Shown piece after piece: positions 2,135 to 35,422 of a stretch of 35,630 nucleotides of DNA. Origin of the DNA: Thermoplasmatota archaeon. Its GTDB lineage: Archaea; Thermoplasmatota; SW-10-69-26; JACQPN01; JAJPHT01. The stretch lies in the NCBI GenBank assembly GCA_041599855.1, contig JBFILE010000002.1, forward strand, positions 1-35,630, read 5' to 3'. The notes below the pieces were generated by a model. It was not told the DNA's origin. It ran no database searches and worked only from the letters and a program-made list of their open reading frames with translations. Each line of letters begins with the position of its first letter. Within the stretch, counting starts at the first letter, position 1. Position numbers and translations under genes: made by a program.

Positions 2135-2171
2135 GAGTGTAACCATACACGCTTGACGCTCAAGAGTCAAC
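2132..2171 (-). promoter_or_regulatory. class-1 promoter/operator cassette P1
   Basis: -35 TTGACT (2170..2165), 17-nt spacer, -10 TATGGT (2147..2142), 7 nt, ATG 2134. Two mismatches to the P2/P4 40-mer. Confidence 0.7.
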
Positions 2172-4882: not shown

Positions 4883-5007
4883 GAGTTGCGGAGGGGGTCC
4901 TTCAGGATTTCGGCGAGGTGTTCGGCGGGCCCGATGTCGATGGCGTACCGCAGGCGGAGGACGGCCACGGCGAGGTGGAGGGCGAAGGCGAAGGCGAGGC
5001 GTCTCAC
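4879..5007 (-). CDS. hypothetical small membrane-like protein (42 aa)
   Basis: Below the track cutoff. GTG 5007..5005 overlaps the TGA of 5004..5477 (GTGA) and its TGA overlaps the primase ATG (ATGA). Hand translation VRRLAFAFALHLAVAVLRLRYAIDIGPAEHLAEILKDPLRNS, with a hydrophobic N-terminus. Confidence 0.35.
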   Translation of the reverse strand: MRRLAFAFALHLAVAVLRLRYAIDIGPAEHLAEILKDPLRNS

Positions 5008-5477
5008 GCTGCGGCGTTCCGGAGGCGGGTGGCGGCGGAGTGGCGGCGCTTATTGATCTTCGAGAGCGGCCAGCCGAGAAACTCGGCGGCCTGGCGGTGG
5101 GTCATCGGGTCGCCCTCGAATCCGTAGAGGAGGCGGAGCGTTACTCGCTCCTCGATGCTGAGGGAGGCGAGGAGGTCGCCCACGTCGGCGGCCAGCCGGT
5201 CCTCGGCCTCGATATCGGCCTCGGTGCGGTGGTCCTGCGTGAAGCTCTGGAGAGCGTCGTACCCGTTCGAGAAGTAATCGGTCACGATGGGGCGGCGCTT
5301 GTCCACCAAGGGGCCGCGCTGGCGGTTGTGGGGGTGGAGGGGGTCGTCCAGCGGAGAGACGGCCTGGCGGGCCTCTGCGGGGGAGAGGCCTTCGAGGCGG
5401 TGGAGGAAGTACCCCTGCCTTACGTCCTCGTTCGTAATGTCACGGGCCTCCTCGATGAGGGCGTTAGCGTCGATCAT
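5004..5477 (-). CDS. sigma-70 region-4-like HTH protein (possible phage sigma factor or -35-type DNA binder), 157 aa
   Basis: C-terminal LSIEERVTLRLLYGFEGDPMTHRQAAEFLGWPLSKINKRRHSAATRLR fits the sigma70 region 4.2 pattern. No clear region 2 seen by eye. ATG 5477 lies 3 nt after a class-2 motif copy. Confidence 0.7.
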   Translation of the reverse strand: MIDANALIEEARDITNEDVRQGYFLHRLEGLSPAEARQAVSPLDDPLHPHNRQRGPLVDKRRPIVTDYFSNGYDALQSFTQDHRTEADIEAEDRLAADVGDLLASLSIEERVTLRLLYGFEGDPMTHRQAAEFLGWPLSKINKRRHSAATRLRNAAA

Positions 5478-5480
5478 GAT

Positions 5481-5513
5481 GGAGGTGTCGGCCCCGAGGT
5501 CGAGCGGTGCCCA
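5481..5513 (-). promoter_or_regulatory. class-2 bipartite motif, copy b (upstream of the sigma-like gene)
   Basis: TGGGCAC-N14-GCCGACACCTCC, then 3 nt, then ATG 5477. Confidence 0.55.
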
Positions 5514-5563: not shown

Positions 5564-5830
5564 TCAGAGGAGGACCGTGGTCCCGTTCCGCACGTCGAAG
5601 GCTACGTCCTGGTCGGCCACGATGCCGAGGAGGGCTTCGGCGGCCCGGAAGTCCATCCCGTGCTCCATGAGCATTGAGGCGGCCCGGTTGCCGGTGGCCG
5701 TGCGGAAGGCTCCGTCCCGGAACATTCCGAAGACGGCGAGGTCATGGCCGAAGTTCGAGGCGCTACCCGGGGCGAGGCGCTCCAGGCGGACGGCGAGAGT
5801 GTCGGTGCGGGTGGGGTGGGTCGTGTTCAT
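5564..5830 (-). CDS. hypothetical protein (88 aa), leaderless
   Basis: Track ORF 5564..5866 trimmed to ATG 5830 (MNTTHPTRT...), 7 nt downstream of the TATGGT of cassette P2. Confidence 0.65.
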   Translation of the reverse strand: MNTTHPTRTDTLAVRLERLAPGSASNFGHDLAVFGMFRDGAFRTATGNRAASMLMEHGMDFRAAEALLGIVADQDVAFDVRNGTTVLL

Positions 5831-5867
5831 AGGTGTAACCATACACGCTTGACGCTCAAGAGTCAAC
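5828..5867 (-). promoter_or_regulatory. class-1 promoter/operator cassette P2
   Basis: -35 TTGACT (5866..5861), -10 TATGGT (5843..5838), ATG 5830. The 40-mer is identical to P4. Confidence 0.7.
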
Positions 5868-5947
5868 GTCCCACGGGAGATTTCTTCGGCGGTACCGGCG
5901 GAGCGCTCGGAGGGTGACCTCGTGCCAGATGTAGCGGGCCTCGCGGA

Positions 5948-7454: not shown

Positions 7455-7461
7455 CCTCGGT

Positions 7462-7494
7462 GTAGGTGTCGGCCCGAGGTGGCCGCGGTGCTCA
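7462..7494 (-). promoter_or_regulatory. class-2 bipartite motif, copy e (not coupled to an ATG)
   Basis: TGAGCAC-N14-GCCGACACCTAC. The TGA is the stop of the exonuclease gene. It is followed by hairpin 7431..7454 and an SD-led GTG gene. Confidence 0.45.
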
Positions 7495-8323: not shown

Positions 8324-8728
8324 TCAGAGCCACTCGCCCAGGTCGTCGGCGTCGTCGCCACTGAACGCCCCCACGTCGTCCAGGATCACGCCCTGGTCGA
8401 TCAACCACTCCACGAGGCGGGCGTAGGTCACGCCCTGCGGGGTCGTGCGGCCCGTGCCGTAGTAGCTCCCACCCGAGCGGATGAAGGCGTAGCGGAGGGT
8501 GATCGTCTCGCCCTCGTCGAACCCGAGCCCGGGCTGGCAGCGCTCGAAGGTGATGATGTCGCCATCGGTGCACGGGTCGTCGGTGCCGAAGTCTTCGAGG
8601 CTCTCCTCGATGCGGGCACGCTCGGCGGCGGCGGTCTGCTCAGCGCGGACCGAGGTGGCGGTGAGCGACGGGGGAAAGTGGGGGATATCCAGGTTGGCCC
8701 GGATGGTGATTTCGTTAAGTGATGCCAT
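8324..8728 (-). CDS. hypothetical protein (134 aa, acidic C-terminus)
   Basis: Track ORF. ATG 8728 lies 3 nt after a class-2 motif copy and has no SD. Confidence 0.75.
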   Translation of the reverse strand: MASLNEITIRANLDIPHFPPSLTATSVRAEQTAAAERARIEESLEDFGTDDPCTDGDIITFERCQPGLGFDEGETITLRYAFIRSGGSYYGTGRTTPQGVTYARLVEWLIDQGVILDDVGAFSGDDADDLGEWL

Positions 8729-8731
8729 GGG

Positions 8732-8764
8732 GGAGGTGTCGGCCCCCCACGGGCCCCGTGCTCA
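8732..8764 (-). promoter_or_regulatory. class-2 bipartite motif, copy c
   Basis: TGAGCAC-N14-GCCGACACCTCC, then 3 nt, then ATG 8728. The TGA is the stop of 8762..9328. Confidence 0.55.
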
Positions 8765-9328
8765 GGGCTTGAGTGCTTCGCGAAGCTCGCGCACGTCGGC
8801 GGCTAGCTCGCGCACTGCATCCACGGCGGCCTTACGCTCTGCGAGGCTCGACCCATGAGCCTGGACAGTCGCCAGGGCCACGGCCTCACGCGCCCTACGG
8901 ATGGCGGCGAGGAGGGAATCCGGCGGGCCCAGGCCGACCTCGCGGGCGCGGCTAATCAGGTTCGCCCGGGCGGCCTCGATACGCTCACGAGGGGAGACGA
9001 TGCGGAGCCCCGCGGCTTGAAGCTCCTCAGGCGTGAGGGTCTCGCGGAGGAGGTTCCCCACGTGGTAGCGGAGGCCGTTCTTCACGGCGGCCAGCGCGTC
9101 CTCGTCCACGCCTGAGGCCTCGTACACGGCGCTCATGACCTGGCGGTACTCCCAGGAGCGGCCAGCGGGGTCATCGTACCCCATCCGGAGGCGTACCACC
9201 TGGGCGGCCATCTCCCGGAGGATTTCCGAGGAGGGCTTAGCGGCGTAGGCCTGGATGAGGCGCGTTATCAGGTTCGCCACGTCGGCCATGGGCGGGAGGG
9301 TAGTCCCCCCGCCCATGCTCGGCGTCAT
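8762..9328 (-). CDS. hypothetical helical protein (188 aa)
   Basis: Track ORF 8762..9433 trimmed to ATG 9328, which overlaps the TGA of the upstream gene by 1 nt (TGATG). Confidence 0.7.
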   Translation of the reverse strand: MTPSMGGGTTLPPMADVANLITRLIQAYAAKPSSEILREMAAQVVRLRMGYDDPAGRSWEYRQVMSAVYEASGVDEDALAAVKNGLRYHVGNLLRETLTPEELQAAGLRIVSPRERIEAARANLISRAREVGLGPPDSLLAAIRRAREAVALATVQAHGSSLAERKAAVDAVRELAADVRELREALKP

Positions 9329-10092
9329 CACTGCTCTACCTTGAAATCGGAGGCGCACTCTGAGCACGTAATCCCGCCCGCTTCCAGGACAGCGGCCGAG
9401 GCCCGGATGATGCGGGGCTCCTCGCACGAGCACGTGGCCTTCAGGTTCGAGCGGGAGGCGGGCTTCTTCGGCGTCTTCGGGAGGTCGGGGTTCTCCCCGT
9501 TGCCCTTCGTGCCGCCCTTGCCGGTCACGAGGCCGAGGCGCTCGAAGGTATCGAGGTGGGCGTGAATGGCCTTATCCAGGGCCTCTATCACCTTGGCGTG
9601 CTTCTTGATCGTGTCCTCACGGAGGACGACGGCGGAGAAGCCGATCGAGACATCGGGGGACTGGCCCTCGGGCCACTCCATGCCAAGCTCCTCGGCCAGG
9701 GCCACGAACTTCTGATTATGGTAGCGGAAGCCCCTAGAGGTGTCCTGCACGCCCCGCACGACCGCGAGAGCGTGGACCGCTTCGTGGACCATGGTGGCGA
9801 AGGTGTCGGTCGCCCCGCACGCCAAGCGCTCGCCTGCGATGAAGATTTCCGGGAGGCGGCCAGCCTCATCGGTCACGGTGCCATCCTGGCGGAGGACCCA
9901 GCGGTCGGCCCCGTAGTGGCCCCACTTCGCCCCTCTGCCCATGAGGCCGGTCCCGGTGATGAAGAGGACCTCGGGGAGGTCGGGGTGGGCCTTGCGGAGG
10001 GAGGCGTAAGCCTTCTCCATGGCCTTGACGACGGTGGAGCCTGCCATACCTTCGAGGTTAGCGACCTTGCGGGGAGCGGTTGCGGTTGTCAT
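9328..10092 (-). CDS. SprT-like zinc metalloprotease-domain protein (254 aa), leaderless
   Basis: Track ORF 9328..10197 trimmed to ATG 10092, 7 nt downstream of the TATGGT of cassette P3. HEAVHAL (HExxH) motif and a C-terminal CSC...CSEC zinc ribbon. Confidence 0.8.
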   Translation of the reverse strand: MTTATAPRKVANLEGMAGSTVVKAMEKAYASLRKAHPDLPEVLFITGTGLMGRGAKWGHYGADRWVLRQDGTVTDEAGRLPEIFIAGERLACGATDTFATMVHEAVHALAVVRGVQDTSRGFRYHNQKFVALAEELGMEWPEGQSPDVSIGFSAVVLREDTIKKHAKVIEALDKAIHAHLDTFERLGLVTGKGGTKGNGENPDLPKTPKKPASRSNLKATCSCEEPRIIRASAAVLEAGGITCSECASDFKVEQ

Positions 10093-10129
10093 AGGTGTAA
10101 CCATACACACTTGACGCTTGAGTGTCAAC
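10090..10129 (-). promoter_or_regulatory. class-1 promoter/operator cassette P3
   Basis: -35 TTGACA (10128..10123), -10 TATGGT (10105..10100), ATG 10092. The central hexamer of the dyad is inverted relative to the other copies. Confidence 0.7.
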
Positions 10130-10140
10130 CTGAGAACGCA

Positions 10141-10172
10141 AGAATCCCCCCAGATTTCTCCGGGGGGATTCT
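10141..10172 (-). terminator. hairpin closing the late/lysis unit, immediately upstream of P3
   Basis: Perfect 11-bp stem AGAATCCCCCC / GGGGGGATTCT. The loop contains AGATTTCT. Confidence 0.65.
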
Positions 10173-10614: not shown

Positions 10615-11204
10615 GGGGGGGTGGTGCCTTTCAGGAGATGGCGGACGATATCGGTGGCGGGTGCTCGGAGGTCCTCAATGGTGCCGAAGTTCTCCACGAG
10701 AATGTCAGGGGTGAAGTTGTTAAGAGCGGTCTCGGAGACGTGAGCGGTCACGGGGTCTACGTCCCGGACCACCTTGACGAGAGCGCTTACGCGGACGTGG
10801 CGGACGGCGTGCACCTCGTTCGGGAAGCGAACGTCGGTGAAGACCACGGGCCCCTCGATCTGGGAGGCCCGCTCCACGGCCAGGCGGACCCAGAAGTCCG
10901 GGCTCATGGCCCGCACGGCGTCGGTGCCGATTCGCTGGAGTAGGCGGCGGATATCGGGGTAGTTCCGCTTCGCCCACTCCCATCCCTGCTCCCTCACGAT
11001 GTTCGAGAGGCGGGCGGTCGTGGTGGCGTCGTGGATATAGGGGTCAATGGCGAGGGCCATCTCCCGCACGTTGTCGGCGAAGGCCACGCGGGTGAAGCCG
11101 AAGCTCTCCACGAGGATGGCGGCGAGGGTGTCCTTCCCGGCCCCGGCGGGCCCGTACAGGCCTACCCATGGGGGGAGGTGGTAGTTAGATGGTGGGGCTG
11201 ACAT
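10611..11204 (-). CDS. deoxynucleoside monophosphate kinase-like P-loop protein (197 aa)
   Basis: GLYGPAGAGKDTLAAIL Walker A followed by FAD, typical of phage dNMP kinases. ATG 11204 lies 3 nt after a class-2 motif copy. Confidence 0.8.
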   Translation of the reverse strand: MSAPPSNYHLPPWVGLYGPAGAGKDTLAAILVESFGFTRVAFADNVREMALAIDPYIHDATTTARLSNIVREQGWEWAKRNYPDIRRLLQRIGTDAVRAMSPDFWVRLAVERASQIEGPVVFTDVRFPNEVHAVRHVRVSALVKVVRDVDPVTAHVSETALNNFTPDILVENFGTIEDLRAPATDIVRHLLKGTTPP

Positions 11205-11207
11205 GAG

Positions 11208-11240
11208 GGGGGTGTCGGCCCCACCATCTAGACGTGCTCA
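11208..11240 (-). promoter_or_regulatory. class-2 bipartite motif, copy d
   Basis: TGAGCAC-N14-GCCGACACCCCC, then 3 nt, then ATG 11204. The TGA is the stop of 11238..11471. Confidence 0.55.
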
Positions 11241-12837: not shown

Positions 12838-12874
12838 GGGGGTCCTTCGAGGGGGTAGGGTTACACGCTCCCCG

Positions 12875-19944: not shown

Positions 19945-19949
19945 TTAGG

Positions 19950-19989
19950 CCTCCGGGGCGGCTAGCACAGTGCGGGGGTCGGTGTCAAG
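19950..19989. repeat. imperfect direct repeat A flanking the tail-operon gap
   Basis: CCTCCGG..CTAGCACAG..GGGGG..TGTCAAG. Its partner is at 20224..20261. Confidence 0.6.
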
Positions 19990-20223
19990 CTCAAGCGCCC
20001 CAGAGCGTGAAATACGGGTGTATTATTACACACTTCTCGGAGCGGTTGTTTCCCTTGCGGCGCAAGGGTTAGCGGGGATTTCGGAGCCCTCGGCGTTCGC
20101 CCAGATTCCACGAGAAGGGTGGAACATGGGTGACCAGGGCGCAGGAGGGGTGTCGTCGCTCCTAGGCCCTCCTAGGGGCCAATGCGGCCAAGTCTGGACG
20201 AGGCCGGAAACGACGAAACCCCC

Positions 20224-20261
20224 CCTCCGGCCACTAGCACAGAGGGGGGGAGGCTGTCAAG
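20224..20261. repeat. imperfect direct repeat B flanking the tail-operon gap
   Basis: CCTCCGG..CTAGCACAG..GGGGG..TGTCAAG. Its partner is at 19950..19989. Confidence 0.6.
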
Positions 20262-20270
20262 TCACTCCCC

Positions 20271-21445: not shown

Positions 21446-21885
21446 TATGCGTTTCTCGCTCTCACGGCCACGTCGGCCTCGATGATGGTGCGGTGGGTCC
21501 CCTCGGCCACGATGGACGTGGAGAGGGTGAAGCCCCCGAAGGTGGCCCAGAGAATGCCCGGGGGGTCCTCGGCGGTGGCCAGCTTGGGGTCGCCCGTGAG
21601 GAGGTCCTGAACCTCCCCCAGGATTTCCAGGGCCCGGACCTCGGTGGCCTCGTGGCCCTTCGTGGAATCCACGAGGACGAAGAGGCGCACGGAGTAGGAC
21701 TCCTCGGTACGCACTCGGGCGGACCGCATCGTGGCGGGCTCGGACTCGTGCTCTTCCACGTCCCCCATGTAGACGCGCTCGCGCTGCGGGCGGCGCACGT
21801 CGTCCCCATAGGTCACCTGGACCGGAGTGAGGCGGGCGGAGAGCGTGCTCACGAGGGCGCGCTTCGTGGCGACGATCGTGCTCAT
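21445..21885 (-). CDS. head-tail joining / tail terminator-like protein (146 aa)
   Basis: Track ORF. ATGA overlap with the connector gene. Function from position only. Confidence 0.65.
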   Translation of the reverse strand: MSTIVATKRALVSTLSARLTPVQVTYGDDVRRPQRERVYMGDVEEHESEPATMRSARVRTEESYSVRLFVLVDSTKGHEATEVRALEILGEVQDLLTGDPKLATAEDPPGILWATFGGFTLSTSIVAEGTHRTIIEADVAVRARNA

Positions 21886-22436
21886 GCGACCACGGGCCCA
21901 GAGCGGAAGCGGTTTAGGACCGCGTTGACATCGGGGTAGGCGGTGGGGCGGTCAGGCTTCCCGCCCGCCTGGGCGAGTTGAATCTGGCCGAACTCGGACT
22001 GGACGGCGAGCGCTCGCTCAGGCGTGGCCGAATCGTGCTCGGTCACGTAGGCGGCGGCCAGCGTGCGGGCGGCCCACTTGAGGCGCTCGGGGGCGGCGTC
22101 CTGAATGGCGGCCGTGACAGTGACCTCCACGGTTAGGACATCGGAGACCGAGGCCGGGAGGATGATGTCCCCGAAGAAGTCGGCCTTCCACTCGCTCACG
22201 TCCTGGGCCACTCCGTCGAACTTCGCCGAGGTGATGGTCTGGATGGCCGGTATTCCGGCGTGGATGACCGAGCCCGTCCCGCCCTGGAGGCGCTTCGTGA
22301 TGACGGTCGGAGCCCACGGTCCGCAGTAGTCGGTAATGAGTTCCTCTGCCCGTGCGATCGAATCTAGGAGGAGGTCGTCCGGGTAGTCTTCCAGGCCCGG
22401 GAGGGCCCGGACCTCGGTGAGGTCGGTGTAGGCCAT
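21882..22436 (-). CDS. head-tail connector (gp6-like) protein (184 aa)
   Basis: Track ORF 21882..22448. ATG 22436 is preferred because GGAGG lies 5 nt upstream, whereas ATG 22448 has no SD. N-terminus MAYTDLTEVRALPGLEDYPDDLLLDSIARAEELITDYCG is typical of connector/QLRG-type proteins. Confidence 0.75.
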   Translation of the reverse strand: MAYTDLTEVRALPGLEDYPDDLLLDSIARAEELITDYCGPWAPTVITKRLQGGTGSVIHAGIPAIQTITSAKFDGVAQDVSEWKADFFGDIILPASVSDVLTVEVTVTAAIQDAAPERLKWAARTLAAAYVTEHDSATPERALAVQSEFGQIQLAQAGGKPDRPTAYPDVNAVLNRFRSGPVVA

Positions 22437-22449
22437 GAGGCCCTCCATT

Positions 22450-22469
22450 CTTGACGCTGAAGAGTCAGG
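22450..22469 (-). promoter_or_regulatory. promoter-less class-1 dyad copy S5
   Basis: + strand CTTGACGCTGAAGAGTCAGG, 17/20 identical to the class-1 dyad. No -10 follows. Covers stop codon 22465..22467. Confidence 0.5.
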
Positions 22470-22767
22470 CGTCCTCGTCGGTCTCGGTCAGGTCCACAAT
22501 CGGGGCGTCGGCGGCCTCGCCGAGAAGCTCGGGGGCGTGGAAGGTGATAACGCCCTCGGAGGCGGTCTCCACCTCTTCGGCCACGGATGCGGTCTCCACC
22601 TTCTTGGCGGCGGCCTTCTTGGCGGCGGCCTTCTTGGCAGGCTTGACGGCCTCCACGTGGCCGGAGCGGATGAAGCCCTCGGCGGACTCCTCGCTCAGGT
22701 CGTAGGTCTCGCCTACCCGGTAGGTGGCCTGGACGGTGGCGAAGTTCTGGACGGCGCGGACTTTCAT
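22465..22767 (-). CDS. hypothetical head-module protein with AKKAAAKKAAAKK tract (100 aa)
   Basis: Track ORF. GAGGGAG SD upstream of ATG 22767. Its stop codon lies inside dyad copy S5. Confidence 0.7.
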   Translation of the reverse strand: MKVRAVQNFATVQATYRVGETYDLSEESAEGFIRSGHVEAVKPAKKAAAKKAAAKKVETASVAEEVETASEGVITFHAPELLGEAADAPIVDLTETDEDA

Positions 22768-22809
22768 AGGGTGCTCCCTCGTTATAGGTTGGAGGTGTTC
22801 GCTTTAATA

Positions 22810-22884
22810 GCGGAGAGGGAAGGAATCGAACCTTCCAGGAATCCCGTGAGCCAGGAGGTAGTCGGGCTCTGCCAGGGCTCTCCG
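22810..22884 (-). other. tRNA-like element (acceptor stem plus T-arm only)
   Basis: Minus-strand 75-mer. It has a 7-bp perfect acceptor stem CGGAGAG/CTCTCCG and a T-arm GGAAGG-TTCGATT-CCTTCC with a canonical TPsiC-type loop. No D-arm and no proper anticodon arm could be folded by hand. Confidence 0.35.
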
Positions 22885-22945
22885 GAGCGGAAGCCCCCCT
22901 CCCTGTAGGTCGGGAGGAGGAGGGCTATCGCTCAGGGGTTGAGGA

Positions 22946-24174: not shown

Positions 24175-24198
24175 GAAGCGTGCGGTGTTACACGCTTC
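24175..24198 (-). other. 8-bp perfect hairpin between the protease and capsid genes
   Basis: GAAGCGTG-N8-CACGCTTC. It contains AAGCGTGTAAC, related to the class-1 core. Confidence 0.4.
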
Positions 24199-27623: not shown

Positions 27624-27926
27624 TCAGGTCAGAGTGAGGTGGCCTACCCGGCGGATGAAGTCCTCCGGGGCGGCGGTGACGCGGACCCATACGGCGTAAA
27701 CCCCGGGGGGCTTTGCCAGGGCCCCCGAGCCGAAGAGGAAGACGGCGGTGGCTCGGAAGGTCTCGTTAGGGAGCTCCACGGCGGTACCCTCCCACGCCCC
27801 TGGTACCCACGAGACCGGGGCCTCATCGGTGGCGGTCAGGGCCACGGAGACCGAGCCCCCCGTAGGGTCAGCGGTCCCCACCACGTTCCAGCGGCGATAT
27901 TCGATGGAGGTGGCGGGGAACTGCAT
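27624..27926 (-). CDS. hypothetical small beta-rich protein (100 aa)
   Basis: Track ORF, last gene of the terS-terL cassette. Confidence 0.6.
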   Translation of the reverse strand: MQFPATSIEYRRWNVVGTADPTGGSVSVALTATDEAPVSWVPGAWEGTAVELPNETFRATAVFLFGSGALAKPPGVYAVWVRVTAAPEDFIRRVGHLTLT

Positions 27927-27936
27927 GGCGGGCCTT

Positions 27937-29604
27937 TCAGGCGGCGGGGGACACTACGAAGGACGGCCCGGCGGGCGTGACATCGGCGGAGCGCTTGCTC
28001 TCCTGGACCACGGGCCCAGGGAGCGGGCCCTCCACCTTGAGGATGGCCCAGAGCACGCTTAGGAGGGAGACCGAGCCCCCAAACGTCACGGCCCCCAGCG
28101 ATGCGAGGGTGGCCAGGAGGGCCAGGGATGCGGAGCCCCCGAGCGTCGAAGCCCCCGAAGCCCCGAGGGGGGCCAGGCGGCCGAGGACGGCGGAGCCCCC
28201 GAAGGTAGCGGTGGCGGTGGCCAGGAGCGAGCGGGCGGCGGTGATTGCGGCCGAGCCCGAGGCGGTGAACGCCCCAGATGCGGCCAGGATGAGCGGGGCT
28301 GCCCCTAGGCTCAAGGTAGCGGAGCCCGAGGTGGTCAGGTCGCCGGAGGCGGTGAGCGGGCGAGAGGCCACGAGAGTGGCCGCTCCGGCGGTAGCCAGGG
28401 CCCCGGACGCGGTGAGCGGGCGAGAGGCCACGAGAGTGGCGGAGCCCGAGGCGGTCAGGTCCCCGGAGGCGGCGAGTGCGTGCACCTGGCGGAGGGTGGC
28501 GGAATCTCCGAATACGGCCCCGCCTGAGGCGGTGAGGAAGTGCTCGGTGGCGGCCCCGTCGATCACCAGGGCGGCCGAGCCCGAGGCGGTGAGGCTGCCC
28601 GAGGCGGTGAGCGGGGCGGTCCGGTCCAGGGTGGCGGCCCCGGTAGCCGAGACCGAGCCCGAGGCGGAGAGCGGACGCTCAGCGCTCACGGAGGCGGTGC
28701 CCGAGGTGGTCAGGTCGCCGGATGCTGCTACCGCCTGGGAGGTGCCGAGCGCTGCGGTGCCCGAGGTGGTGAGGTCGCCGGAGGCGGTGAGCGGGCGCTC
28801 TGTCACGAGGGCGGCGGTGCCCGAGGTGGCGAGGTCGCCGGATGCTGCGAGCGGGCGAGAGGCCACGATGTCGGCGGAGCCCGAGGTGGTCAGGTCGCCC
28901 GAGGCGGTGAGCGGGTGGGAGGTGGGGCCCCCTCCTGCTAGCTCCTCGGCGGTGAAGTTGTCTACGAAGGGCTGAGAGTAGAGCGAGGAGTAGTTACGCG
29001 TCAGACGAAAGCCCGTCCACGTACCTGAAGGGTAGGTGGAGTCGGTGGTCGAGACCTTCTCCACGCCATTGAGGAAGGCCGTAAGGGTGGAGCCCGAAGC
29101 CTCTAGGCGTACAGTCGCGGCGGAACCCGTATCGGTCCGCCAGTTATTGATACCGAGGTCTGCGAGGGGGATGAGAGCGCTGGAGGCCAAGAGGGTGGGG
29201 ACATCTCCGTCCACCCGGTAAATCTGAACCTTGATCTCCTGGACCCAGGTCCGCTCTAGTACTGCAAGGTACCCGTTGAAGGTGCCCGCCCCCATCGAGG
29301 AGGCGGAGCCTCGAACGATAGGGCCGCCTTGCTGCCCAGCAATGTTCGTGTCACTGCTCTCGGTGTCCACGAAGACATCGAGAGAGGCGGCGTGGTCGGC
29401 CACGGCCTGGGCGGTTTGGTGAATGGCCCACGAGGACCCCACGGTGGACATGTCCACCACGTTGGTGCCGTCAGAGTGCGTGTTATGAGTGTCGAGAGTG
29501 GCGACGCCCCCCGACTGAGCCCAGACCGCCCACGTTCCCGGGGCTGCACTCGCAAGGGTGCTCCCTAGGGTGTAGGCGTTGAAGTTGTCGGTGACGGTGG
29601 GCAC
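27937..29604 (-). CDS. fibre-like protein: N-terminal LamG/ConA-like domain plus about 14 tandem 20-aa repeats (555 aa)
   Basis: GTG start with GGAG 8 nt upstream. The N-terminal domain is bracketed by DNF...FVDNF. Repeats are of the type RPLTASGDLTTSGSATLVAS. The DNA shows a 60-bp periodicity, with exact 32-mers at 28349..28380 and 28409..28440. Confidence 0.8.
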   Translation of the reverse strand: MPTVTDNFNAYTLGSTLASAAPGTWAVWAQSGGVATLDTHNTHSDGTNVVDMSTVGSSWAIHQTAQAVADHAASLDVFVDTESSDTNIAGQQGGPIVRGSASSMGAGTFNGYLAVLERTWVQEIKVQIYRVDGDVPTLLASSALIPLADLGINNWRTDTGSAATVRLEASGSTLTAFLNGVEKVSTTDSTYPSGTWTGFRLTRNYSSLYSQPFVDNFTAEELAGGGPTSHPLTASGDLTTSGSADIVASRPLAASGDLATSGTAALVTERPLTASGDLTTSGTAALGTSQAVAASGDLTTSGTASVSAERPLSASGSVSATGAATLDRTAPLTASGSLTASGSAALVIDGAATEHFLTASGGAVFGDSATLRQVHALAASGDLTASGSATLVASRPLTASGALATAGAATLVASRPLTASGDLTTSGSATLSLGAAPLILAASGAFTASGSAAITAARSLLATATATFGGSAVLGRLAPLGASGASTLGGSASLALLATLASLGAVTFGGSVSLLSVLWAILKVEGPLPGPVVQESKRSADVTPAGPSFVVSPAA

Positions 29605-29616
29605 GGGGTCGCTCCG

Positions 29617-30060
29617 TTAGAACAGAAGGGTGGGCACCCCGTCGAATCGGGCGGCAAAGGTCGGCTCATTAACGAGGACCCAGCGGGAGACCCCTAGCAC
29701 TGTCATATCCCGGAACGTGTTTCGCGCTGCGTCGAACGTAGTTTCGAGGGTGCGCTCCTCAGGTTTCGAGATAACACGGGCCATGTCTGCGGGGCTCGTG
29801 GGGTCCCCGAGGTCGTATGTCCCGGCGGGGGCGGCCACGAGGTCCCGAGCGATAACGAGGAAGTGCAGACGGTTACCGCGCCCATTGAGCGGGGCGCACG
29901 TGTAGGGGCCTGCTATAGCCACGTCGGGGCGGATGGGGTCCGGGCGGTAGGCGAAGGTCGAGGGGAGTCCAGTGTCCGGGTCGGTGGGGTAGGGCGGATC
30001 GAGAGCGATAGGCCCGAGGACTCCCCCCGTGCCCGTGCTCCCGGTAATGAACATACGCAC
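29617..30060 (-). CDS. hypothetical protein (147 aa)
   Basis: Track ORF. GTG 30060 with GGAAGGA 8 nt upstream (alternative ATG at 30054). Confidence 0.6.
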   Translation of the reverse strand: MRMFITGSTGTGGVLGPIALDPPYPTDPDTGLPSTFAYRPDPIRPDVAIAGPYTCAPLNGRGNRLHFLVIARDLVAAPAGTYDLGDPTSPADMARVISKPEERTLETTFDAARNTFRDMTVLGVSRWVLVNEPTFAARFDGVPTLLF

Positions 30061-30082
30061 GGGGGGAATCCTTCCGAGGGAA

Positions 30083-30499
30083 TCAGTCGCCGGTCATGAC
30101 GAGAGCGCCAGCGGCGATCGTGATGGAGTCCCCGTTAGCGGGGTCCTTCGCGGCGTCGGCGGTCCAGTAGAAGGGGAGGTCTCCGGCGGTGCCTGTCGAA
30201 GCCGACACGAGAGCGATATGGGTAACGTTCGCTAGGTCGGCGGTGAAGGGGCCGAAGGTGATAGCGCCCGTGTTCGAGGAACTCGAAGGGTCGCCAGTCG
30301 GAGCGGAGAAGGCCACGGTCTGACGGTTGTATCCGCTTACACCTGGGGTGGCAAGCTCGGCCATCGTCGCCATGCTCGTGGCGTCGGTCGGCGCTGCGGT
30401 GAGGAGCGCGAGGTACATGGTGCGGGCGGTCTGCGTTGCACGACCGCTCATAGCGTCCAGGGCGATATTCGCCCCGGCGGTGGAGGGCTGTCCAGCCAT
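30083..30499 (-). CDS. small tail-fibre/collar-like beta protein (138 aa)
   Basis: The pattern MYLALLTAAPTD...GVSGYNRQTVAFSAP...NTGAITFGPF...VTHIALVSASTGTAGDL recalls a family recurrent in phage tail-fibre modules. This is recognition by eye only. Confidence 0.65.
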   Translation of the reverse strand: MAGQPSTAGANIALDAMSGRATQTARTMYLALLTAAPTDATSMATMAELATPGVSGYNRQTVAFSAPTGDPSSSSNTGAITFGPFTADLANVTHIALVSASTGTAGDLPFYWTADAAKDPANGDSITIAAGALVMTGD

Positions 30500-30536
30500 C
30501 TTGGTGGGTCCTTTCGGGGTGGGGGCGGTGGGGGCT

Positions 30537-30556
30537 CTTGACTCTTAAGTGTCAGG
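30537..30556 (-). promoter_or_regulatory. promoter-less class-1 dyad copy S6
   Basis: + strand CTTGACTCTTAAGTGTCAGG, 16/20 self-complementary around CTTAAG. Covers stop codon 30552..30554. Confidence 0.5.
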
Positions 30557-31331
30557 AGTGCCCGAGGTGTTCGAGGGTGTAGAGGTTCCGAAGCTCGAAG
30601 TCATAGAAATCCAGGCGGAGCCCGGCGTGGAGCGGGCGATCCCACCACGGGGCCCCCGGTAGCTTCTCGATGACCTCGTAGACCTTCACGCCATCCCAGT
30701 AGATGATGTGGTGCCCCTTACTCGGGACGACCAGGCGGAAGGTATGCCACTCGCCTAGCTGAGCGTCGTGGTCGAAGCCCGTGGGGAGGTAGGTGTAGGC
30801 CCGGGCGATGCCGTAGGGGCCATTGATCTGGCCCGAGGCGCTCCAGCGGTCCTTGCCGTTAGGGGCGAAGCCCGAGACGATGTTATTATCCTCGTCCACG
30901 AAGGCGGGGTGGAAGTTGACGCCCCACTTCCACGTTGGCTCCCGCTGCTCGGTCTCGATCCAAACACGGTCCAGGCGGGAGCGGATGAGGATATCCCCTC
31001 CGAACTCGTAGGGGGGCTCCAGGGCGTCCCGGGTGATGATGCGCGAGTAGACGCCATACGCCCCGAGCTTCACGGTCCCGGCGGCGGTGACGCGGCCCGA
31101 GCGGAGGGTCCCGGACTCGGTGACCACGAGGACGGAGCGACCGCCGCGCTGCTCGATGGCGGAGTTTCCGAGGGGGCCGCGGCCCCAGTAGTCGGTACCA
31201 GTGAAGACCGTTCCCGGGGCCTGCCCCTCGGTCGGGGCTAGGTTGAACCTTACACCTTTCTCGCTCTCGGGGTAGCATGTGTGAGCTACCACGGGCAAGA
31301 AGGCGAGGAGGAAGAAGGAGAGGTACTTCAC
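30552..31331 (-). CDS. secreted ConA-like lectin/glucanase-fold protein with N-terminal signal peptide (259 aa)
   Basis: GTG start. MKYLSFFLLAFLPVVAHTC looks like a signal peptide. WHTFRLVV...HIIYWDGVKVYE resembles ConA-like/GH16-type beta-sandwich proteins. Confidence 0.7.
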   Translation of the reverse strand: MKYLSFFLLAFLPVVAHTCYPESEKGVRFNLAPTEGQAPGTVFTGTDYWGRGPLGNSAIEQRGGRSVLVVTESGTLRSGRVTAAGTVKLGAYGVYSRIITRDALEPPYEFGGDILIRSRLDRVWIETEQREPTWKWGVNFHPAFVDEDNNIVSGFAPNGKDRWSASGQINGPYGIARAYTYLPTGFDHDAQLGEWHTFRLVVPSKGHHIIYWDGVKVYEVIEKLPGAPWWDRPLHAGLRLDFYDFELRNLYTLEHLGHS

Positions 31332-32480: not shown

Positions 32481-32515
32481 CGGCTATCTCCGGGGGGCTT
32501 GTGCGATTTCTGGCA

Positions 32516-32530
32516 CTTCAAGAGTCAAAG
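32516..32530 (-). promoter_or_regulatory. class-1 half-site S7 upstream of the HNH/terS block
   Basis: Coding strand CTTTGACTCTTGAAG shares TTGACTCTTGA with the class-1 cassettes, but no good -10 lies 17 nt downstream (CGCACA). Confidence 0.35.
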
Positions 32531-32638
32531 ATCGACTCACACTAGGGCCGCGTGTCTAGGGGTACCAGGGTGAGGAAGGGTGCCCCCTGCTCCGAACTTC
32601 TGCCGGAGCGTGCGTGCGTGCGGGTAGGCGCAGGCCCC

Positions 32639-32950
32639 CTACCCTGGTCGATGCTCGCGTAGGTCGCTGAGGGTCTTACGGGCGTGGCACGCTTCACAAA
32701 GCGCTTGCAGATTCGAGAAGGTATCGAGACCACCTGCCCATAGGGGGATGCGGTGATCCCACTCGATTTCGCGAGGGGGGAGTGGCTTCGCACACGAGGC
32801 GCACGGGGTACGTGTACCGGGGGGAGTGGATGCCCGGGCCAGCCTACGGAGGGAGGGGGAGCGGGTGATGGCGTGGGCCTGGCATCGTGGCTCTCCCGGG
32901 CGCGTGAGGCGCTGGCACACGATGCAGGGACGAGGAAGGGGTAGTCCCAT
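32639..32950 (-). CDS. HNH endonuclease (103 aa)
   Basis: Track ORF 32639..33175 trimmed to ATG 32950 (GGAGGG 8 nt upstream). CIVCQ...CQAH and CASCAKPL...EWDHRIPLWAGGLDTFSNLQALCEACHARKT. Confidence 0.75.
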   Translation of the reverse strand: MGLPLPRPCIVCQRLTRPGEPRCQAHAITRSPSLRRLARASTPPGTRTPCASCAKPLPPREIEWDHRIPLWAGGLDTFSNLQALCEACHARKTLSDLREHRPG

Positions 32951-33147
32951 GGTGGTGGCCCTCCAGGGCAGAGGCGTGAGGGCTTGACCCTGGAGGGGCC
33001 GAGAGCGGTGGGGGAGAGGGGCCCAGCGTGCGGTCCTGCATGGGGGCAACCTGCCAGAGGGAGGGCACTCTCCCCCCTTGTATAGTGTGGGCCCCCCGTG
33101 CTCACGGGACCAGGGGCGGGGGGTTCTCACGGCGAGAAGAGTGGCGG

Positions 33148-33360
33148 CGTGTTCCGCGCGTTCCGGAAGTTCCACAAACTCGGTGTTCTCTATTGCTCTT
33201 GTGGTCTTCTTCTTCTACATAGCTATAGGAGGAACGCTAAACATGGAACTCTTGGAACGCCCCTGGTAGATGGGGGTGCCCGTTTGCTAAGCCCCTGGTA
33301 GATGGGTGTTCCATGGGCGTTCCGGAAGCCTCCCCTCCACCACTCTGAGCGGTTCCGATT
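33148..33360. repeat. GGAAC/GTTCC pentamer cluster with 12-bp and 16-bp direct repeats
   Basis: GTTCC at 33151, 33160 and 33169. GGAAC at 33231, 33245 and 33254. GTTCC at 33308, 33319 and 33352. GCGTTCCGGAAG at 33158 and 33317. GCCCCTGGTAGATGGG at 33259 and 33291. Confidence 0.85.
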
Positions 33361-33427
33361 CTCACTGAGGGTGGGATGGGCTCGCTTCGCAGCGAAATGG
33401 TTGGATAACTCCAAGGTTTATTTCCAC

Positions 33428-34852
33428 TCAGGGGGCCTCGAATCGTACCCTCCCCTCCGCCTTCCCTGAGCGGTCCGAGGCCTTCGAGACGTAGATGGCC
33501 CCCACGGCCTCCCGGAGGAGCTTCTCCCGCTCCGCTGGCCCGTAGGCGGCCCAGACCTCCCCGAAGGTCTCCCCTGTCGCCCTGAAGGCCACGGAGGGAG
33601 GAATGGCGGGTCCTAGTGCCAGGAGGCGGGCGTCTAGAGCCTCAATCTGGCCCAGGATGGCGCGGCGGGCCGTTTCCGACCGGATGCCGACCAGGGAGGC
33701 CCCCAGGTCGTCCAGGGCGGCCAGGAGGTCGGCGCGGTCCTCTGAGCGCTCGTCCGTGGTCTCAATCCTCTCCGTGACATCCCAGGAGCCAAACGTCCCC
33801 AGGAAGAGGCGCTCGACCTCGGCGGCGAGGCGGTCGGCCAGAATGGCGCACCCTGGGCACGGTGGCCCTGTGTAATCGGCGGCCTTCGGGGCGGAGCACT
33901 GGAAGAGTCTATCGGTCACTCGCTCCCCGCTCGATAGGGTTCTATGGCGCGGTTTCGACCAGAGCCTATTCCCACAATGGGCACAGAATGCCAGGCCAGC
34001 GAGGTAGGGGCGCTCCCCGCTCGTAGCCCTCCGGCGTCGGACGCTCACGGCCGCCTGGAGGCGGTCGAAGGTCTCGCGATCGAGAAGGGGCTCCGCTGCG
34101 AGCACTGGGAGGCCATCATCTCCGAAGACCGTGCCCCCGTCCCTCGTGGCGTGCCCTAGGAGGCCTTTCCGGGTGAGCATGTGGCGGATGGCGGTCCTGG
34201 ACCATGCCCGCCCCTTCTGGGCGCTCTGGACGCCCTCAGCATTGAGCCACTCGGCCACGCTCTGGAGGGACGCCCCCGAGAGCGCTCGCTCGATGGCCTC
34301 TCGGAGGATGGGGGCCTCCACGGGGTCGAGTGCGAGCCAATGGCCCGCCCCCGAGGGGTGAGGAGTCGGCCTCCATCCGAATGGGCGCGCCCCGCCCTTC
34401 CATCGGCCCGTGGCGAGTAGGGCGGCCTGCCCTGCCCGGATACGCTCGCGGATGGTCGATAGCTCTAGCTCAGCGAAGACCGAGACCACGCCCGCCATGG
34501 CCTTCCCGATAGGGGTGGTCATGTCGATCGGCTCCGTAGCGCTCACGAGGGCGGTCCCGGCCCTCTCGGCCTCCTGGGCCATCGTGGCGAAGTCCCCCAC
34601 GGAGCGGGCGAGGCGGTCGAGCTTCCAGAAGACCACGGCGTCAAACTCGCCGAGGCGGGCCCTAAGGCGGCGGAGGGCGGGGCGGTCCGTGGAGCCCCCA
34701 CTCTGCCCGAGGTCCTCGAAGACATCCACAAGCTCCCACCCTCGGGCCTGGCATAGTCCAGCGATGAGGGCCCGTTGACGCTCGGGGGAGGTGGAGGAGT
34801 CGGTCTCGCGGCTGAGGCGGACGTAGCCCGCTACCCTGGTCGAATCGGCCAT
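33428..34852 (-). CDS. int: large serine recombinase (integrase), 474 aa
   Basis: N-terminal resolvase domain VAGYVRLSRETDSSTSPERQ with the catalytic Ser, a recombinase domain, zinc ribbon CAHCGNRLW...CSAPKAADYTGPPCPGC, and a C-terminal coiled coil. Confidence 0.95.
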   Translation of the reverse strand: MADSTRVAGYVRLSRETDSSTSPERQRALIAGLCQARGWELVDVFEDLGQSGGSTDRPALRRLRARLGEFDAVVFWKLDRLARSVGDFATMAQEAERAGTALVSATEPIDMTTPIGKAMAGVVSVFAELELSTIRERIRAGQAALLATGRWKGGARPFGWRPTPHPSGAGHWLALDPVEAPILREAIERALSGASLQSVAEWLNAEGVQSAQKGRAWSRTAIRHMLTRKGLLGHATRDGGTVFGDDGLPVLAAEPLLDRETFDRLQAAVSVRRRRATSGERPYLAGLAFCAHCGNRLWSKPRHRTLSSGERVTDRLFQCSAPKAADYTGPPCPGCAILADRLAAEVERLFLGTFGSWDVTERIETTDERSEDRADLLAALDDLGASLVGIRSETARRAILGQIEALDARLLALGPAIPPSVAFRATGETFGEVWAAYGPAEREKLLREAVGAIYVSKASDRSGKAEGRVRFEAP

Positions 34853-34901
34853 GGGGGAGAGTGTACCTCTCCGTCAAGCGCGGGGGTGCCTCGGGGCCCA
34901 C

Positions 34902-35054
34902 GTGCATCTGGTAGCTACGCCGGTGCATATTCGTACCGAGCCGTGCCCCGTAGTGCATCTGGTAGCTACGCCGGTGCATATTCGTACCGAGCCGTGCCCC
35001 GTAGTGCATCTGGTAGCTACGCCGGTGCGTGTTCGTACCGAGCCGTGCCGCTGG
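34902..35054. repeat. 3 x 51-bp direct tandem repeat upstream of int
   Basis: Units start at 34902, 34953 and 35004. Units 1 and 2 are identical and unit 3 diverges at its end. Each carries two GTGCAT hexamers 21 bp apart and the palindrome GTAGCTAC. Confidence 0.9.
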
Positions 35055-35067
35055 CCCCCTGCGCTCA

Positions 35068-35117
35068 GTGTGCCTTTCCGTTAAGCGCGAGGGGGCGTGC
35101 TTGACGGAAAGGGACAC
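35068..35117. repeat. 50-bp imperfect palindrome (19-bp arms, 17/19 complementary)
   Basis: GTGTGCCTTTCCGTTAAGC - 12 nt - GCTTGACGGAAAGGGACAC. The left arm plus part of the loop is duplicated at 34861..34890. Confidence 0.85.
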
Positions 35118-35122
35118 TCCCC

Positions 35123-35356
35123 TCAGGCGGGGGTGACCGTGACGGTCTCGCCCGAGGGGGTGACCATGATGGCCCCGCGGCCCTCGTGGGTGACCTCGGT
35201 AATCTGGAGGTCGATACCCCGGGCCAGGCCCAGGCGGGCGGCGATGCGGCGCTGGAGGGCGATGACTGGGGCCAGGGCGGCGGGGCCCTGCTTCACCTGG
35301 AAGGCGTCCTTCCAGGTCTCGGTGGCGGTGGTGATGGTGACTCGGTGGCTGCTCAT
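35123..35356 (-). CDS. hypothetical protein (77 aa), leaderless
   Basis: Track ORF 35123..35404 trimmed to ATG 35356 (MSSHRVTITTATE...), 7 nt downstream of the TATGGT of cassette P4. Confidence 0.65.
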   Translation of the reverse strand: MSSHRVTITTATETWKDAFQVKQGPAALAPVIALQRRIAARLGLARGIDLQITEVTHEGRGAIMVTPSGETVTVTPA

Positions 35357-35393
35357 AGGTGTAACCATACACGCTTGACGCTCAAGAGTCAAC
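35354..35393 (-). promoter_or_regulatory. class-1 promoter/operator cassette P4
   Basis: -35 TTGACT (35392..35387), -10 TATGGT (35369..35364), ATG 35356. Confidence 0.7.
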
Positions 35394-35422
35394 CTCTCCC
35401 CCAAGATTTCTCAGGGGAGAGG
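35393..35422 (-). terminator. hairpin immediately upstream of P4
   Basis: Perfect 9-bp stem CCTCTCCCC / GGGGAGAGG. The loop contains AGATTTCT. It abuts the -35 of P4. Confidence 0.6.

Follow-up and report, generated by a model that had tools for sequence, protein, structure and literature searches.

What does the palindrome of a promoter do at places where there is no promoter? This question is raised by a 35,630-nt metagenomic contig (JBFILE010000002.1; here called the window, meaning the whole stretch of DNA that was analysed) with 67% G+C and nearly all genes on the minus strand, whose source, judging from its sequence, is an uncultured phiC31-like temperate phage. Four early promoters of the window, which we call class-1 promoters, carry an imperfect palindrome (dyad), and two further copies of this dyad, S5 and S6, lie in short gaps inside the late operon. 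We found that S5 and S6 keep both arms of the dyad, that they are not placed at random and that they are not promoters. On the evidence set out below, we moderately favour the reading that S5 and S6 are putative functional binding sites of the regulator that would act on the promoter dyad.

Two promoter-less dyads in the late operon

The class-1 promoters at 35374, 10110, 5848 and 2152 (repeat family D3) share the sense-strand sequence GTTGAC(T/A)CT(T/C)(G/A)AGCGTCAAG (c/t)GTG TATGGT TACAC(c/t)(t/c) ATG, a sigma70-like layout with the -35 element TTGACT, a 17-nt spacer, the -10 element TATGGT and 7 nt to the start codon. Since only 7 nt separate the -10 element from the start codon, the class-1 mRNAs should be leaderless. 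The -35 element and spacer together form an imperfect palindrome with the arms TTGAC and GTCAA; the dyad 20-mer is CTTGACGCTCAAGAGTCAAC, and the palindrome TGAC(T/A)CTTnAG(A/C)GTCA overlaps both the -35 element and the spacer. At the level of sequence, the same motif occupies all four class-1 promoters in the manner of an operator on early promoters. The count of four, which includes the promoter at 10110, goes beyond the text of the preliminary description of this DNA.

S5 (22450-22469) is identical to the promoter 20-mer at 17 of 20 positions and has a single mismatch to the 16-nt core of the dyad. Its left arm contains the TGA stop codon of the gene 22465-22767, and 3 nt separate its end from GGAGGG, the ribosome-binding site of the head-tail connector gene. 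The connector gene starts at ATG 22436, with an N-terminus (MAYTDL) that agrees with those of the relative L060 and of phiC31 gp37, and the gap holding S5 therefore measures 28 nt. S6 (30537-30556) is self-complementary at 16 of 20 positions. It differs from the core at two positions and, taken in the better-matching orientation, from the 20-mer at four; its two orientations suit the promoter consensus about equally. It overlaps, in its left arm, the TGA stop codon of the gene 30552-31331; from the site to the ATG of the Gp80-like gene there are 37 nt, and the gap measures 52 nt. All that the preliminary description had recorded of S5 (sequence, position, 17/20 match, 28-nt gap and upstream TGA stop) and of S6 (position, self-complementarity and covered TGA stop) was recovered.

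To judge these matches, we used 300 dinucleotide-preserving shuffles of the window as the chance control. The 16-nt core at up to two mismatches was found six times (the four promoters, S5 and S6) against 0.013 expected per window, with no shuffle holding more than one, and the 20-mer at up to four mismatches likewise gave six matches against 0.013 expected per window. A core derived independently from a relative recovered the same six sites of the window, with 0.003 expected. Intergenic DNA makes up roughly 6% of the window, and both S5 and S6 fall in it. A coincidence, for which nothing speaks beyond the small number of sites, is practically out of the question: this expectation stands against two observed sites, both intergenic, the finding is repeated in relatives, and the shuffle controls refute it. 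The preliminary description had named shuffled sequence as a possible source of similar matches, and the shuffles did not give matches in similar number.

A third place, in the 61-nt gap before the HNH and terS genes, had been described as a half-site at 32516-32530. Taken as a full 20-mer dyad, this place (32510) has six mismatches, a degree of match of which 1.5 are expected by chance, and is not significant. Its left half is an 11-nt exact match to the promoters, and the window has six exact copies of the 8-mer TGACTCTT, one of them here, one each in S5 and S6, and the others in three of the four promoters. Because of the exact left half and the six-fold 8-mer, we accept it as probably a real half-site; this much of the earlier claim stands, and a significant dyad at this place does not.

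Neither S5 nor S6 is followed by a TANNNT sequence at 16-19 nt downstream that could serve as a -10 element. In both, the sense -35 arm reads CTGAC and not TTGAC, so the T of the -35 element is lost, and a promoter consensus scan of the window picked out only the four class-1 promoters and neither of the two sites. The earlier statement that the two sites are not promoters but retain the dyad is thus borne out. An intrinsic terminator was also rejected, since there is no GC-rich stem-loop with a U tract, and a terminator scan flagged nothing at the two sites. To our knowledge, the actinobacterial boxes HAIR, BldD, LexA and CRP do not fit the dyad.

A role at the RNA level, as a hairpin for mRNA processing or stability or for translational control, is highly improbable. 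It would agree with the transcription of both sites within the operon and near ribosome-binding sites, with short windows that fold somewhat better than shuffles (z -1.9 and -2.2), and with a perfect 7+7 palindrome in the copy of the related scaffold KOPF15-1_1234 introduced below. However, the hairpins in 30-nt windows at S5 and S6 are weak (-9.2 and -7.1 kcal/mol) and lie in different registers, and no Rfam family matches at the sites, for which reasons a shared RNA structure was rejected. Moreover, the conservation seen so far is specific to sequence and without covariation. At the promoters, the dyad precedes the leaderless start and is not part of the transcripts, so an RNA role cannot explain the shared sequence.

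Junctions and promoters in related phages

No close relative of the window was found in phage, IMG/VR or GTDB collections. A 6-kb piece searched by megablast had no counterpart in the phage collection, and a locus search with the capsid protein in viral and genome contigs returned nothing close. Exact promoter patterns in genome, viral and metagenome contigs matched only one 1-kb contig, and a degenerate dyad pattern in IMG/VR gave 56 matches, all single and at chance level. The relatives compared here, only a handful, were reached via homologues of the capsid, primase and TerL proteins and the contigs that carry them.

The most informative comparison comes from the ENA scaffold KOPF15-1_1234 (loci L061 and L063), whose capsid, connector and primase proteins are 46%, 70% and 62% identical to those of the window. 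Its leaderless class-1 promoters number six and follow the pattern GAAGAATCTTCGATTC..GTTGACTCTT(G/C)AGAGTCAsG yCTGTATGGTTACCCCCATG. A promoter-less dyad, TCTGACTCTTCAGAGTCACC (L061:2094), with perfect 7+7 arms, stands 15 nt before the ATG of its connector gene, at the junction occupied by S5 in the window; the two share 12 contiguous nucleotides, and the surrounding spacer is unalignable. A second promoter-less dyad, GTCATCTCTTAAGAGTCAAC, precedes the lysin gene, and a third, CCTGACACTTCAGAGTCAAC, contains in its own TGA the stop codon of a 97-aa gene. With a further dyad inside polA, the scaffold holds three intergenic and one coding promoter-less sites in 32 kb. Searching it with the core derived from the window at up to two mismatches gave six sites against 0.010 expected.

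Three JGI contigs from three samples (L073, L074 and L075; TerL 82% identical) carry ACTGACTCTTAAGCATCAAC, which overlaps the terS stop codon 15 nt before the next gene, a junction of the S6 type. Two dyad matches were observed in these contigs against 0.005 expected, and their class-1 promoters retain GTTGACTCTTGAG without the right arm. In L065 and L069 the dyad is found at leaderless promoters, and at L065:963 it is offset by 2-3 nt relative to the -35 element, which argues that the dyad is a separable element. L060 and L064, from one assembly, are 73% identical to the window in primase and 84% in TerL. Their leaderless promoters, which lack the dyad, are of the TTGACA-N17/18-TAGAGT type and vary in the spacer. 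A dyad is likewise missing from their gap between terS and the Gp80-like gene and from that between the DUF7302 gene and the connector gene.

From these comparisons, the promoter-less dyads are conserved in position over deep divergence (46-82% protein identity), although the intergenic sequence that flanks them is not conserved. They were seen only in genomes with dyad-bearing promoters, and their two arms are retained also in genomes where one arm is missing from some promoters. The preliminary description had made absence from relatives a ground for rejection; the dyad is present at the same junctions in relatives with dyad promoters and absent where the promoters lack it. Together, the conservation at junctions and the absence in the dyad-less relative are what a shared trans-acting protein that binds the dyad would predict. 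In addition, five of the intergenic promoter-less sites have a left arm, and each of the five shows CTGAC on the sense strand, as against TTGAC in 19 of 20 promoters. This small sample of about three independent loci is consistent with selection against promoter activity at the promoter-less sites.

We also considered whether S5 and S6 are relics, that is, decayed class-1 promoters or scars of module exchange with no present function. This is unlikely, but it has some points in its favour. S6 lies at a variable junction, since in L060 and L073 terS is followed by the next gene without the 259-aa gene that precedes S6 in the window; a weak homologue of this gene in the KOPF scaffold (29% identity) stands directly upstream of a class-1 promoter; and dispersed repeats at gene boundaries can mediate mosaicism. 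However, both arms are kept at the same junctions at the protein divergence given above, while the neighbouring spacer cannot be aligned, and a decaying promoter would not keep the right arm, which is not part of the promoter, while losing the -10 element and the T of the -35 element. The promoter flanks AGAAATCT (upstream) and GTGTATGGTTACAC (downstream) have left no trace at S5 or S6, and because of their absence a duplicated fragment of the promoter region was rejected as well.

The upstream flank is itself a regular feature of the promoters. The AGAAATCT motif (GAAGAATCTTC in the KOPF scaffold) stands about 10-25 nt upstream of the -35 element in every class-1 promoter and also closely downstream of the half-site at 32510, and may represent an UP-like element or the site of a second protein. 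The heptamer AGAAATC is found at 35405-35411, 10153-10159 and 5879-5885, as the variant AGAAACT upstream of 2171, and also at 32505-32511. A different fragment, GCGTGTAAC, similar to the stretch GCGTGTATGGTTAC from the spacer and -10 element of class-1 promoters, occurs on the minus strand at 24189-24195 and 12862-12868, in the gaps that directly precede the capsid gene and the lysin gene.

The putative regulator and its proposed mode of action

In the explanation that we propose, one dimeric, dyad-recognising regulator would recognise TGAC(T/A)CTTnAG(A/C)GTCA wherever it occurs. At the class-1 promoters, the bound regulator would occlude the -35 element and spacer and block initiation. At S6, and perhaps at the 32510 half-site, which is probably an auxiliary operator copy as well, it would be placed at the entry to the packaging and head genes, and at S5 between the head genes and the connector and tail genes. 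At these module boundaries, the promoter-less copies may act as a roadblock against RNA polymerase coming from upstream, or as an anchor for silencing or looping. We infer that a protein binds the sites, that it is the one acting at the promoters and that its binding hinders elongation. A roadblock in particular, as distinct from looping or nucleation, is a tentative choice of mode that we put forward with some doubt.

The purpose of such an arrangement would be to keep transcription out of the late genes in the lysogen, whether it comes from leaky upstream promoters or from flanking host DNA. The integrase gene and the probable attP gap lie directly upstream of the HNH/terS block, and from this position we infer that the integrated late operon adjoins host DNA. 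Integration would then put the operon beside host genes, and read-through from the host would enter where the sites lie.

Several findings weigh against this explanation. A search of essentially all open reading frames (ORFs) of the window against Pfam, PHROGs and NCBIfam matched no helix-turn-helix or repressor family, and a tblastn search with the phiC31 repressor c of the window and ten related loci, as far as the contigs are present, gave no match at E<=1. The contig is itself incomplete, with polA running off its start. With two or three promoter-less sites, there are too few for genome-wide silencing of the L5 type. In L058, which probably belongs to the same phage as L073, the S5 junction holds only TTTGACGCTTAAGAG, a half-site plus the centre, and in L072 no dyad was found after terS. 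The right arm is missing from some class-1 promoters of relatives (L063 8581 and 20903; L073 519 and 1037), so a class-1 promoter does not require the complete dyad. Finally, only few relatives were available for comparison.

The repressor may lie outside this contig. As polA runs off the start of the window, the contig does not cover the whole genome. It lacks about 8 kb of early genes that the KOPF scaffold has, and a repressor encoded there would have escaped the search. A 446-aa plus-strand ORF at 174-1514 was examined as a divergent repressor and rejected, as it is a shadow ORF of polA; the true gene in 1-1514 encodes a family A DNA polymerase on the minus strand, from 1442 to beyond position 1. 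Another gene that was rejected as a repressor codes for 254 aa and always stands behind a class-1 promoter; its product is SprT-like and of metallopeptidase type. With an HEAVH motif and a C-terminal zinc ribbon, it is encoded by the first leaderless gene behind a class-1 dyad promoter at 9328-10092, L063:21513-22274 and L065:996-1724, and both the gene and its promoter are missing at the syntenic position of the dyad-less L064.

The sole recognised DNA-binding domain in the window belongs to a sigma70 region-4/ECF-like protein (5004-5477), and its gene is also present in L064. It goes more plausibly with a second repeat class, TGAGCAC-N13-15-GGGGCCGACACC-N7-ATG, than with the dyad. This second class is found at five early-gene junctions, its TGA often being the upstream stop codon, and is replaced by GGGCGTGTATnACC at the same places in L064; it may be a promoter class read by the divergent protein 5004-5477.

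The same protein bears on the question whether S5 and S6 could be cryptic or factor-dependent promoters of late or middle genes, served by a phage activator or by the sigma-like protein. Their position at module boundaries (before head-accessory genes, before connector and tail genes, and before the lysin gene in the KOPF scaffold) would suit promoters, their arms equal the -35 consensus TTGAC, and the phage does encode a sigma70 region-4 protein. Against this, the change of the -35 T to C on the sense strand is found in all five promoter-less sites, no downstream -10-like element is common to S5, S6 and their counterparts in relatives, and the sigma-like gene occurs in a genome without the dyad and diverges together with the second repeat class. 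We consider such promoters quite improbable.

A further, speculative candidate is the 88-aa protein encoded at 5564-5830. A homologue with 51% identity (L072:3819-4118) is encoded behind the only full-dyad promoter of L072, and the family has 11 representatives. Its AlphaFold model was poor from the single sequence (pLDDT 52.7) and confident with a nine-sequence alignment (pLDDT 88.5); the predicted order of secondary structure is beta-beta-beta-alpha-alpha-beta-beta, and Foldseek found no match to it in PDB or BFVD. Each arm of the dyad equals the core of the -35 hexamer, the two forming an inverted repeat (TTGAC/GTCAA), and from this one may imagine, as a long shot, a regulator that reads -35-like DNA as sigma region 4 does, be it the 5004-5477 protein or the 88-aa protein with its new fold. 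It is an equally distant prospect that this protein would compete with the host sigma factor at early promoters, the -35-dead CTGAC copies serving as roadblocks or decoys in the late operon. If true, this would be a class of repressors with operators made from promoter halves, which is not described for phiC31 or L5.

Gene order and comparison with known systems

The coordinates of the sites and of the genes next to them are collected in Table 1. Read along the minus strand, the window starts with the class-1 promoter at 35374 and its small leaderless gene, followed by a 51-nt tandem repeat, the serine integrase gene (33428-34852), a 322-nt gap of lower GC content, the HNH gene, terS, the 259-aa gene and S6. 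After S6 come the genes of the Gp80-like head protein, a 147-aa protein, a 555-aa repeat protein and a 100-aa protein, then TerL, portal, protease, capsid, the DUF7302 gene and S5. S5 is followed by the head-tail connector, tube, tape measure and other tail genes, the lysin gene and the dNMP (deoxynucleoside monophosphate) kinase gene. The early region then runs from the promoter at 10110 through the SprT-like gene, an exonuclease gene, a gp3-like recombination directionality factor (RDF) gene and RusA to the promoter at 5848, the 88-aa gene, the gene of the sigma70 region-4 protein and primase, and ends with the promoter at 2152 and polA, which extends past the contig end.

Table 1 Positions of the dyad sites, the second repeat class and neighbouring genes in the window.
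Feature	Position	Strand	Remarks
S5, promoter-less dyad	22450..22469		CTTGACGCTGAAGAGTCAGG; sense (minus) strand CCTGACTCTTCAGCGTCAAG
DUF7302 small gene	22465..22767	-	downstream of capsid gene
Head-tail connector/adaptor gene	21882..22436	-	phrog_442; first gene after S5
S6, promoter-less dyad	30537..30556		CTTGACTCTTAAGTGTCAGG; sense strand CCTGACACTTAAGAGTCAAG
259-aa gene	30552..31331	-	between terS and Gp80-like gene
Gp80-like/head protein gene	30083..30499	-	first gene downstream of S6
Half-site (probable)	32510..32529 (match 32516-32528)		sense TTTGACTCTTGAAGTGCCAG; left arm and centre, right arm missing
Class-1 promoter and dyad	35364..35393	-	GTTGACTCTTGAGCGTCAAG cgtg TATGGT, 7 nt, ATG of leaderless gene 35123-35356
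Class-1 promoter and dyad	10100..10129	-	GTTGACACTCAAGCGTCAAG; drives leaderless SprT-like gene 9328-10092
Class-1 promoter and dyad	5838..5867	-	drives leaderless 88-aa gene 5564-5830
Class-1 promoter and dyad	2142..2171	-	drives leaderless 81-aa gene 1889-2134
Second repeat class, GCCGACAC core	11219, 8743, 7473, 5492, 1809	- (sense)	
Repeat family D4	1791-1830, 5474-5513, 7455-7494, 8725-8764, 11201-11240		

The terS and TerL genes are separated by 3.7 kb with five genes (27624-31331; the 259-aa, Gp80-like head protein, 147-aa, 555-aa and 100-aa genes), and the content of this segment differs among the relatives L060, L073 and L072. The 555-aa protein has tandem repeats of about 20 aa, encoded at 28319-28915. 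Between the first leaderless gene and the integrase gene, the 51-nt tandem repeat (34902-35049; 2.9 copies, 97% match) is apparently non-coding, and the ORF that spans it (34662-35372) would give a low-complexity, implausible protein. The lower-GC gap downstream of the integrase gene (33106-33427) contains repeated CCCATCTACCAGGGGC and CTTCCGGAACGC and is a candidate attP region. Beside it, the ORF 32542-33105 looks non-coding, and its GTG start lies inside a promoter-like GTGAGCAC-N13-TATACA motif.

Two other gaps of the window hold elements of their own. The 178-nt gap after the capsid gene (22768-22945, minus strand) has a terminator-like hairpin and then a tRNA-like T-arm (GGAAGGTTCGATTCCTTCC); this element is conserved in L058, L059 and L060, and neither ARAGORN nor Rfam at the gathering threshold reported anything there. 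The 326-nt gap after the tail tube gene (19945-20270) has two copies of TTGACA-N12-CTGTGCTAG, one of them followed by a strong GC hairpin with a T-rich tail, and L060 shows a similar motif in the same gap.

The gene order of the window is that of phiC31 (Lomovskayavirus), and its proteins are about 30-58% identical to those of phiC31, likewise a temperate actinophage that has nearly its whole gene set on a single strand. The order shared by the two comprises the late genes, dNMP kinase, the RDF gp3, primase, polA and serine integrase. The conserved inverted repeats (CIRs) of phiC31 are reportedly sites of the c repressor, as Ingham in 1994 and Wilson in 1995 are said to have described. A k-mer count on the phiC31 genome (AJ006589.3) recovered their palindrome CCTACTCACGTGAGTAGG of about 18 bp; its exact core CTCACGTGAG occurs at 15 places, and a looser k-mer count adds 32548. 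Five of the CIR places are short gaps of the late operon (before terL, terL|portal, capsid gp36|gp37, tape measure|gp44 and gp49|gp50). The gene that follows S5 is homologous to gp37 (E 6e-25), so S5 and a phiC31 CIR occupy an orthologous junction, and the KOPF dyad before the lysin gene parallels the CIR at gp49|gp50. The two phages also have the second repeat class in common, as CCGGGTTGCCGACT in phiC31 (8 copies) and GGGGCCGACACC in the window.

The CIR sequence, however, is unrelated to the window dyad: its consensus has no match in the window at up to three mismatches, and the window dyad is absent from phiC31. The copies differ in number as well, phiC31 having 15 or 16 near-identical ones and the window four at promoters plus two or three others that are more degenerate. 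Unlike the CIRs, the window dyad serves at the same time as -35 element and spacer in leaderless promoters of the sigma70 type.

The preliminary description had compared S5 and S6 with the stoperators of Cluster A mycobacteriophages. In phiC31 and L5, 18-30 dispersed repressor-binding sites have been described (PMC4557955). The stoperators of Cluster A are asymmetric 13-bp sites, present in 20-30 copies per genome, oriented with transcription and bound by monomers, and those of L5 block elongation (PMC6550527); R4-like Streptomyces phages have been described likewise (PMC10276819). Both a block of elongation and the silencing of the prophage have been proposed for such sites (PMC6550527, PMC9283540, PMC10276819). 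As in Cluster A (L5, Bxb1) and in the Streptomyces phages R4 and phiJoe, one motif is found in the window both in early promoters and in non-promoter gaps within operons, often touching stop or start codons. In contrast to stoperators, the window sites are symmetric dyads of 16-20 bp with no usable orientation signal, and there are two full promoter-less sites and one half-site in the 35.6-kb window, and three to four in the KOPF scaffold, instead of 20-30. No repressor of the L5 gp71 type or R4 type was detected among the ORFs of the incomplete contig by the three database searches named above. The analogy thus fits in principle, in that promoters and short gaps within operons carry the same motif, but the asymmetry, orientation and site number that define the family are not found here.

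In lac (O2/O3) and lambda (OL-OR), too, there are additional symmetric operators at a distance from the promoter, in part inside coding regions or between them; they act by looping or as roadblocks over short distances and on one promoter. Unlike these auxiliary operators, the promoter-less copies of the window lie 5-13 kb from the nearest dyad promoter and at the module boundaries of the late operon.

Should all copies of the dyad be bound by one regulator, this phage would be a third independent example, after the CIRs of phiC31 and the stoperators of L5 and R4, of a rare design among temperate actinophages. With few and well-defined sites, a mutational test of the roadblock would be simple, and the dyad, together with the contrast to a dyad-less sister genome, offers a handle for finding the immunity repressor. 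The use of the same capsid|connector junction as in phiC31 by an unrelated sequence suggests that the position is selected and not the motif, which would bear on how a prophage insulates its late genes from read-through. The arrangement as such, with promoter-less operator copies in the late operon, is already known from other actinobacterial phages, and by this comparison the CIRs of phiC31 provide a nearer precedent for S5 and S6 than the stoperators of Cluster A.

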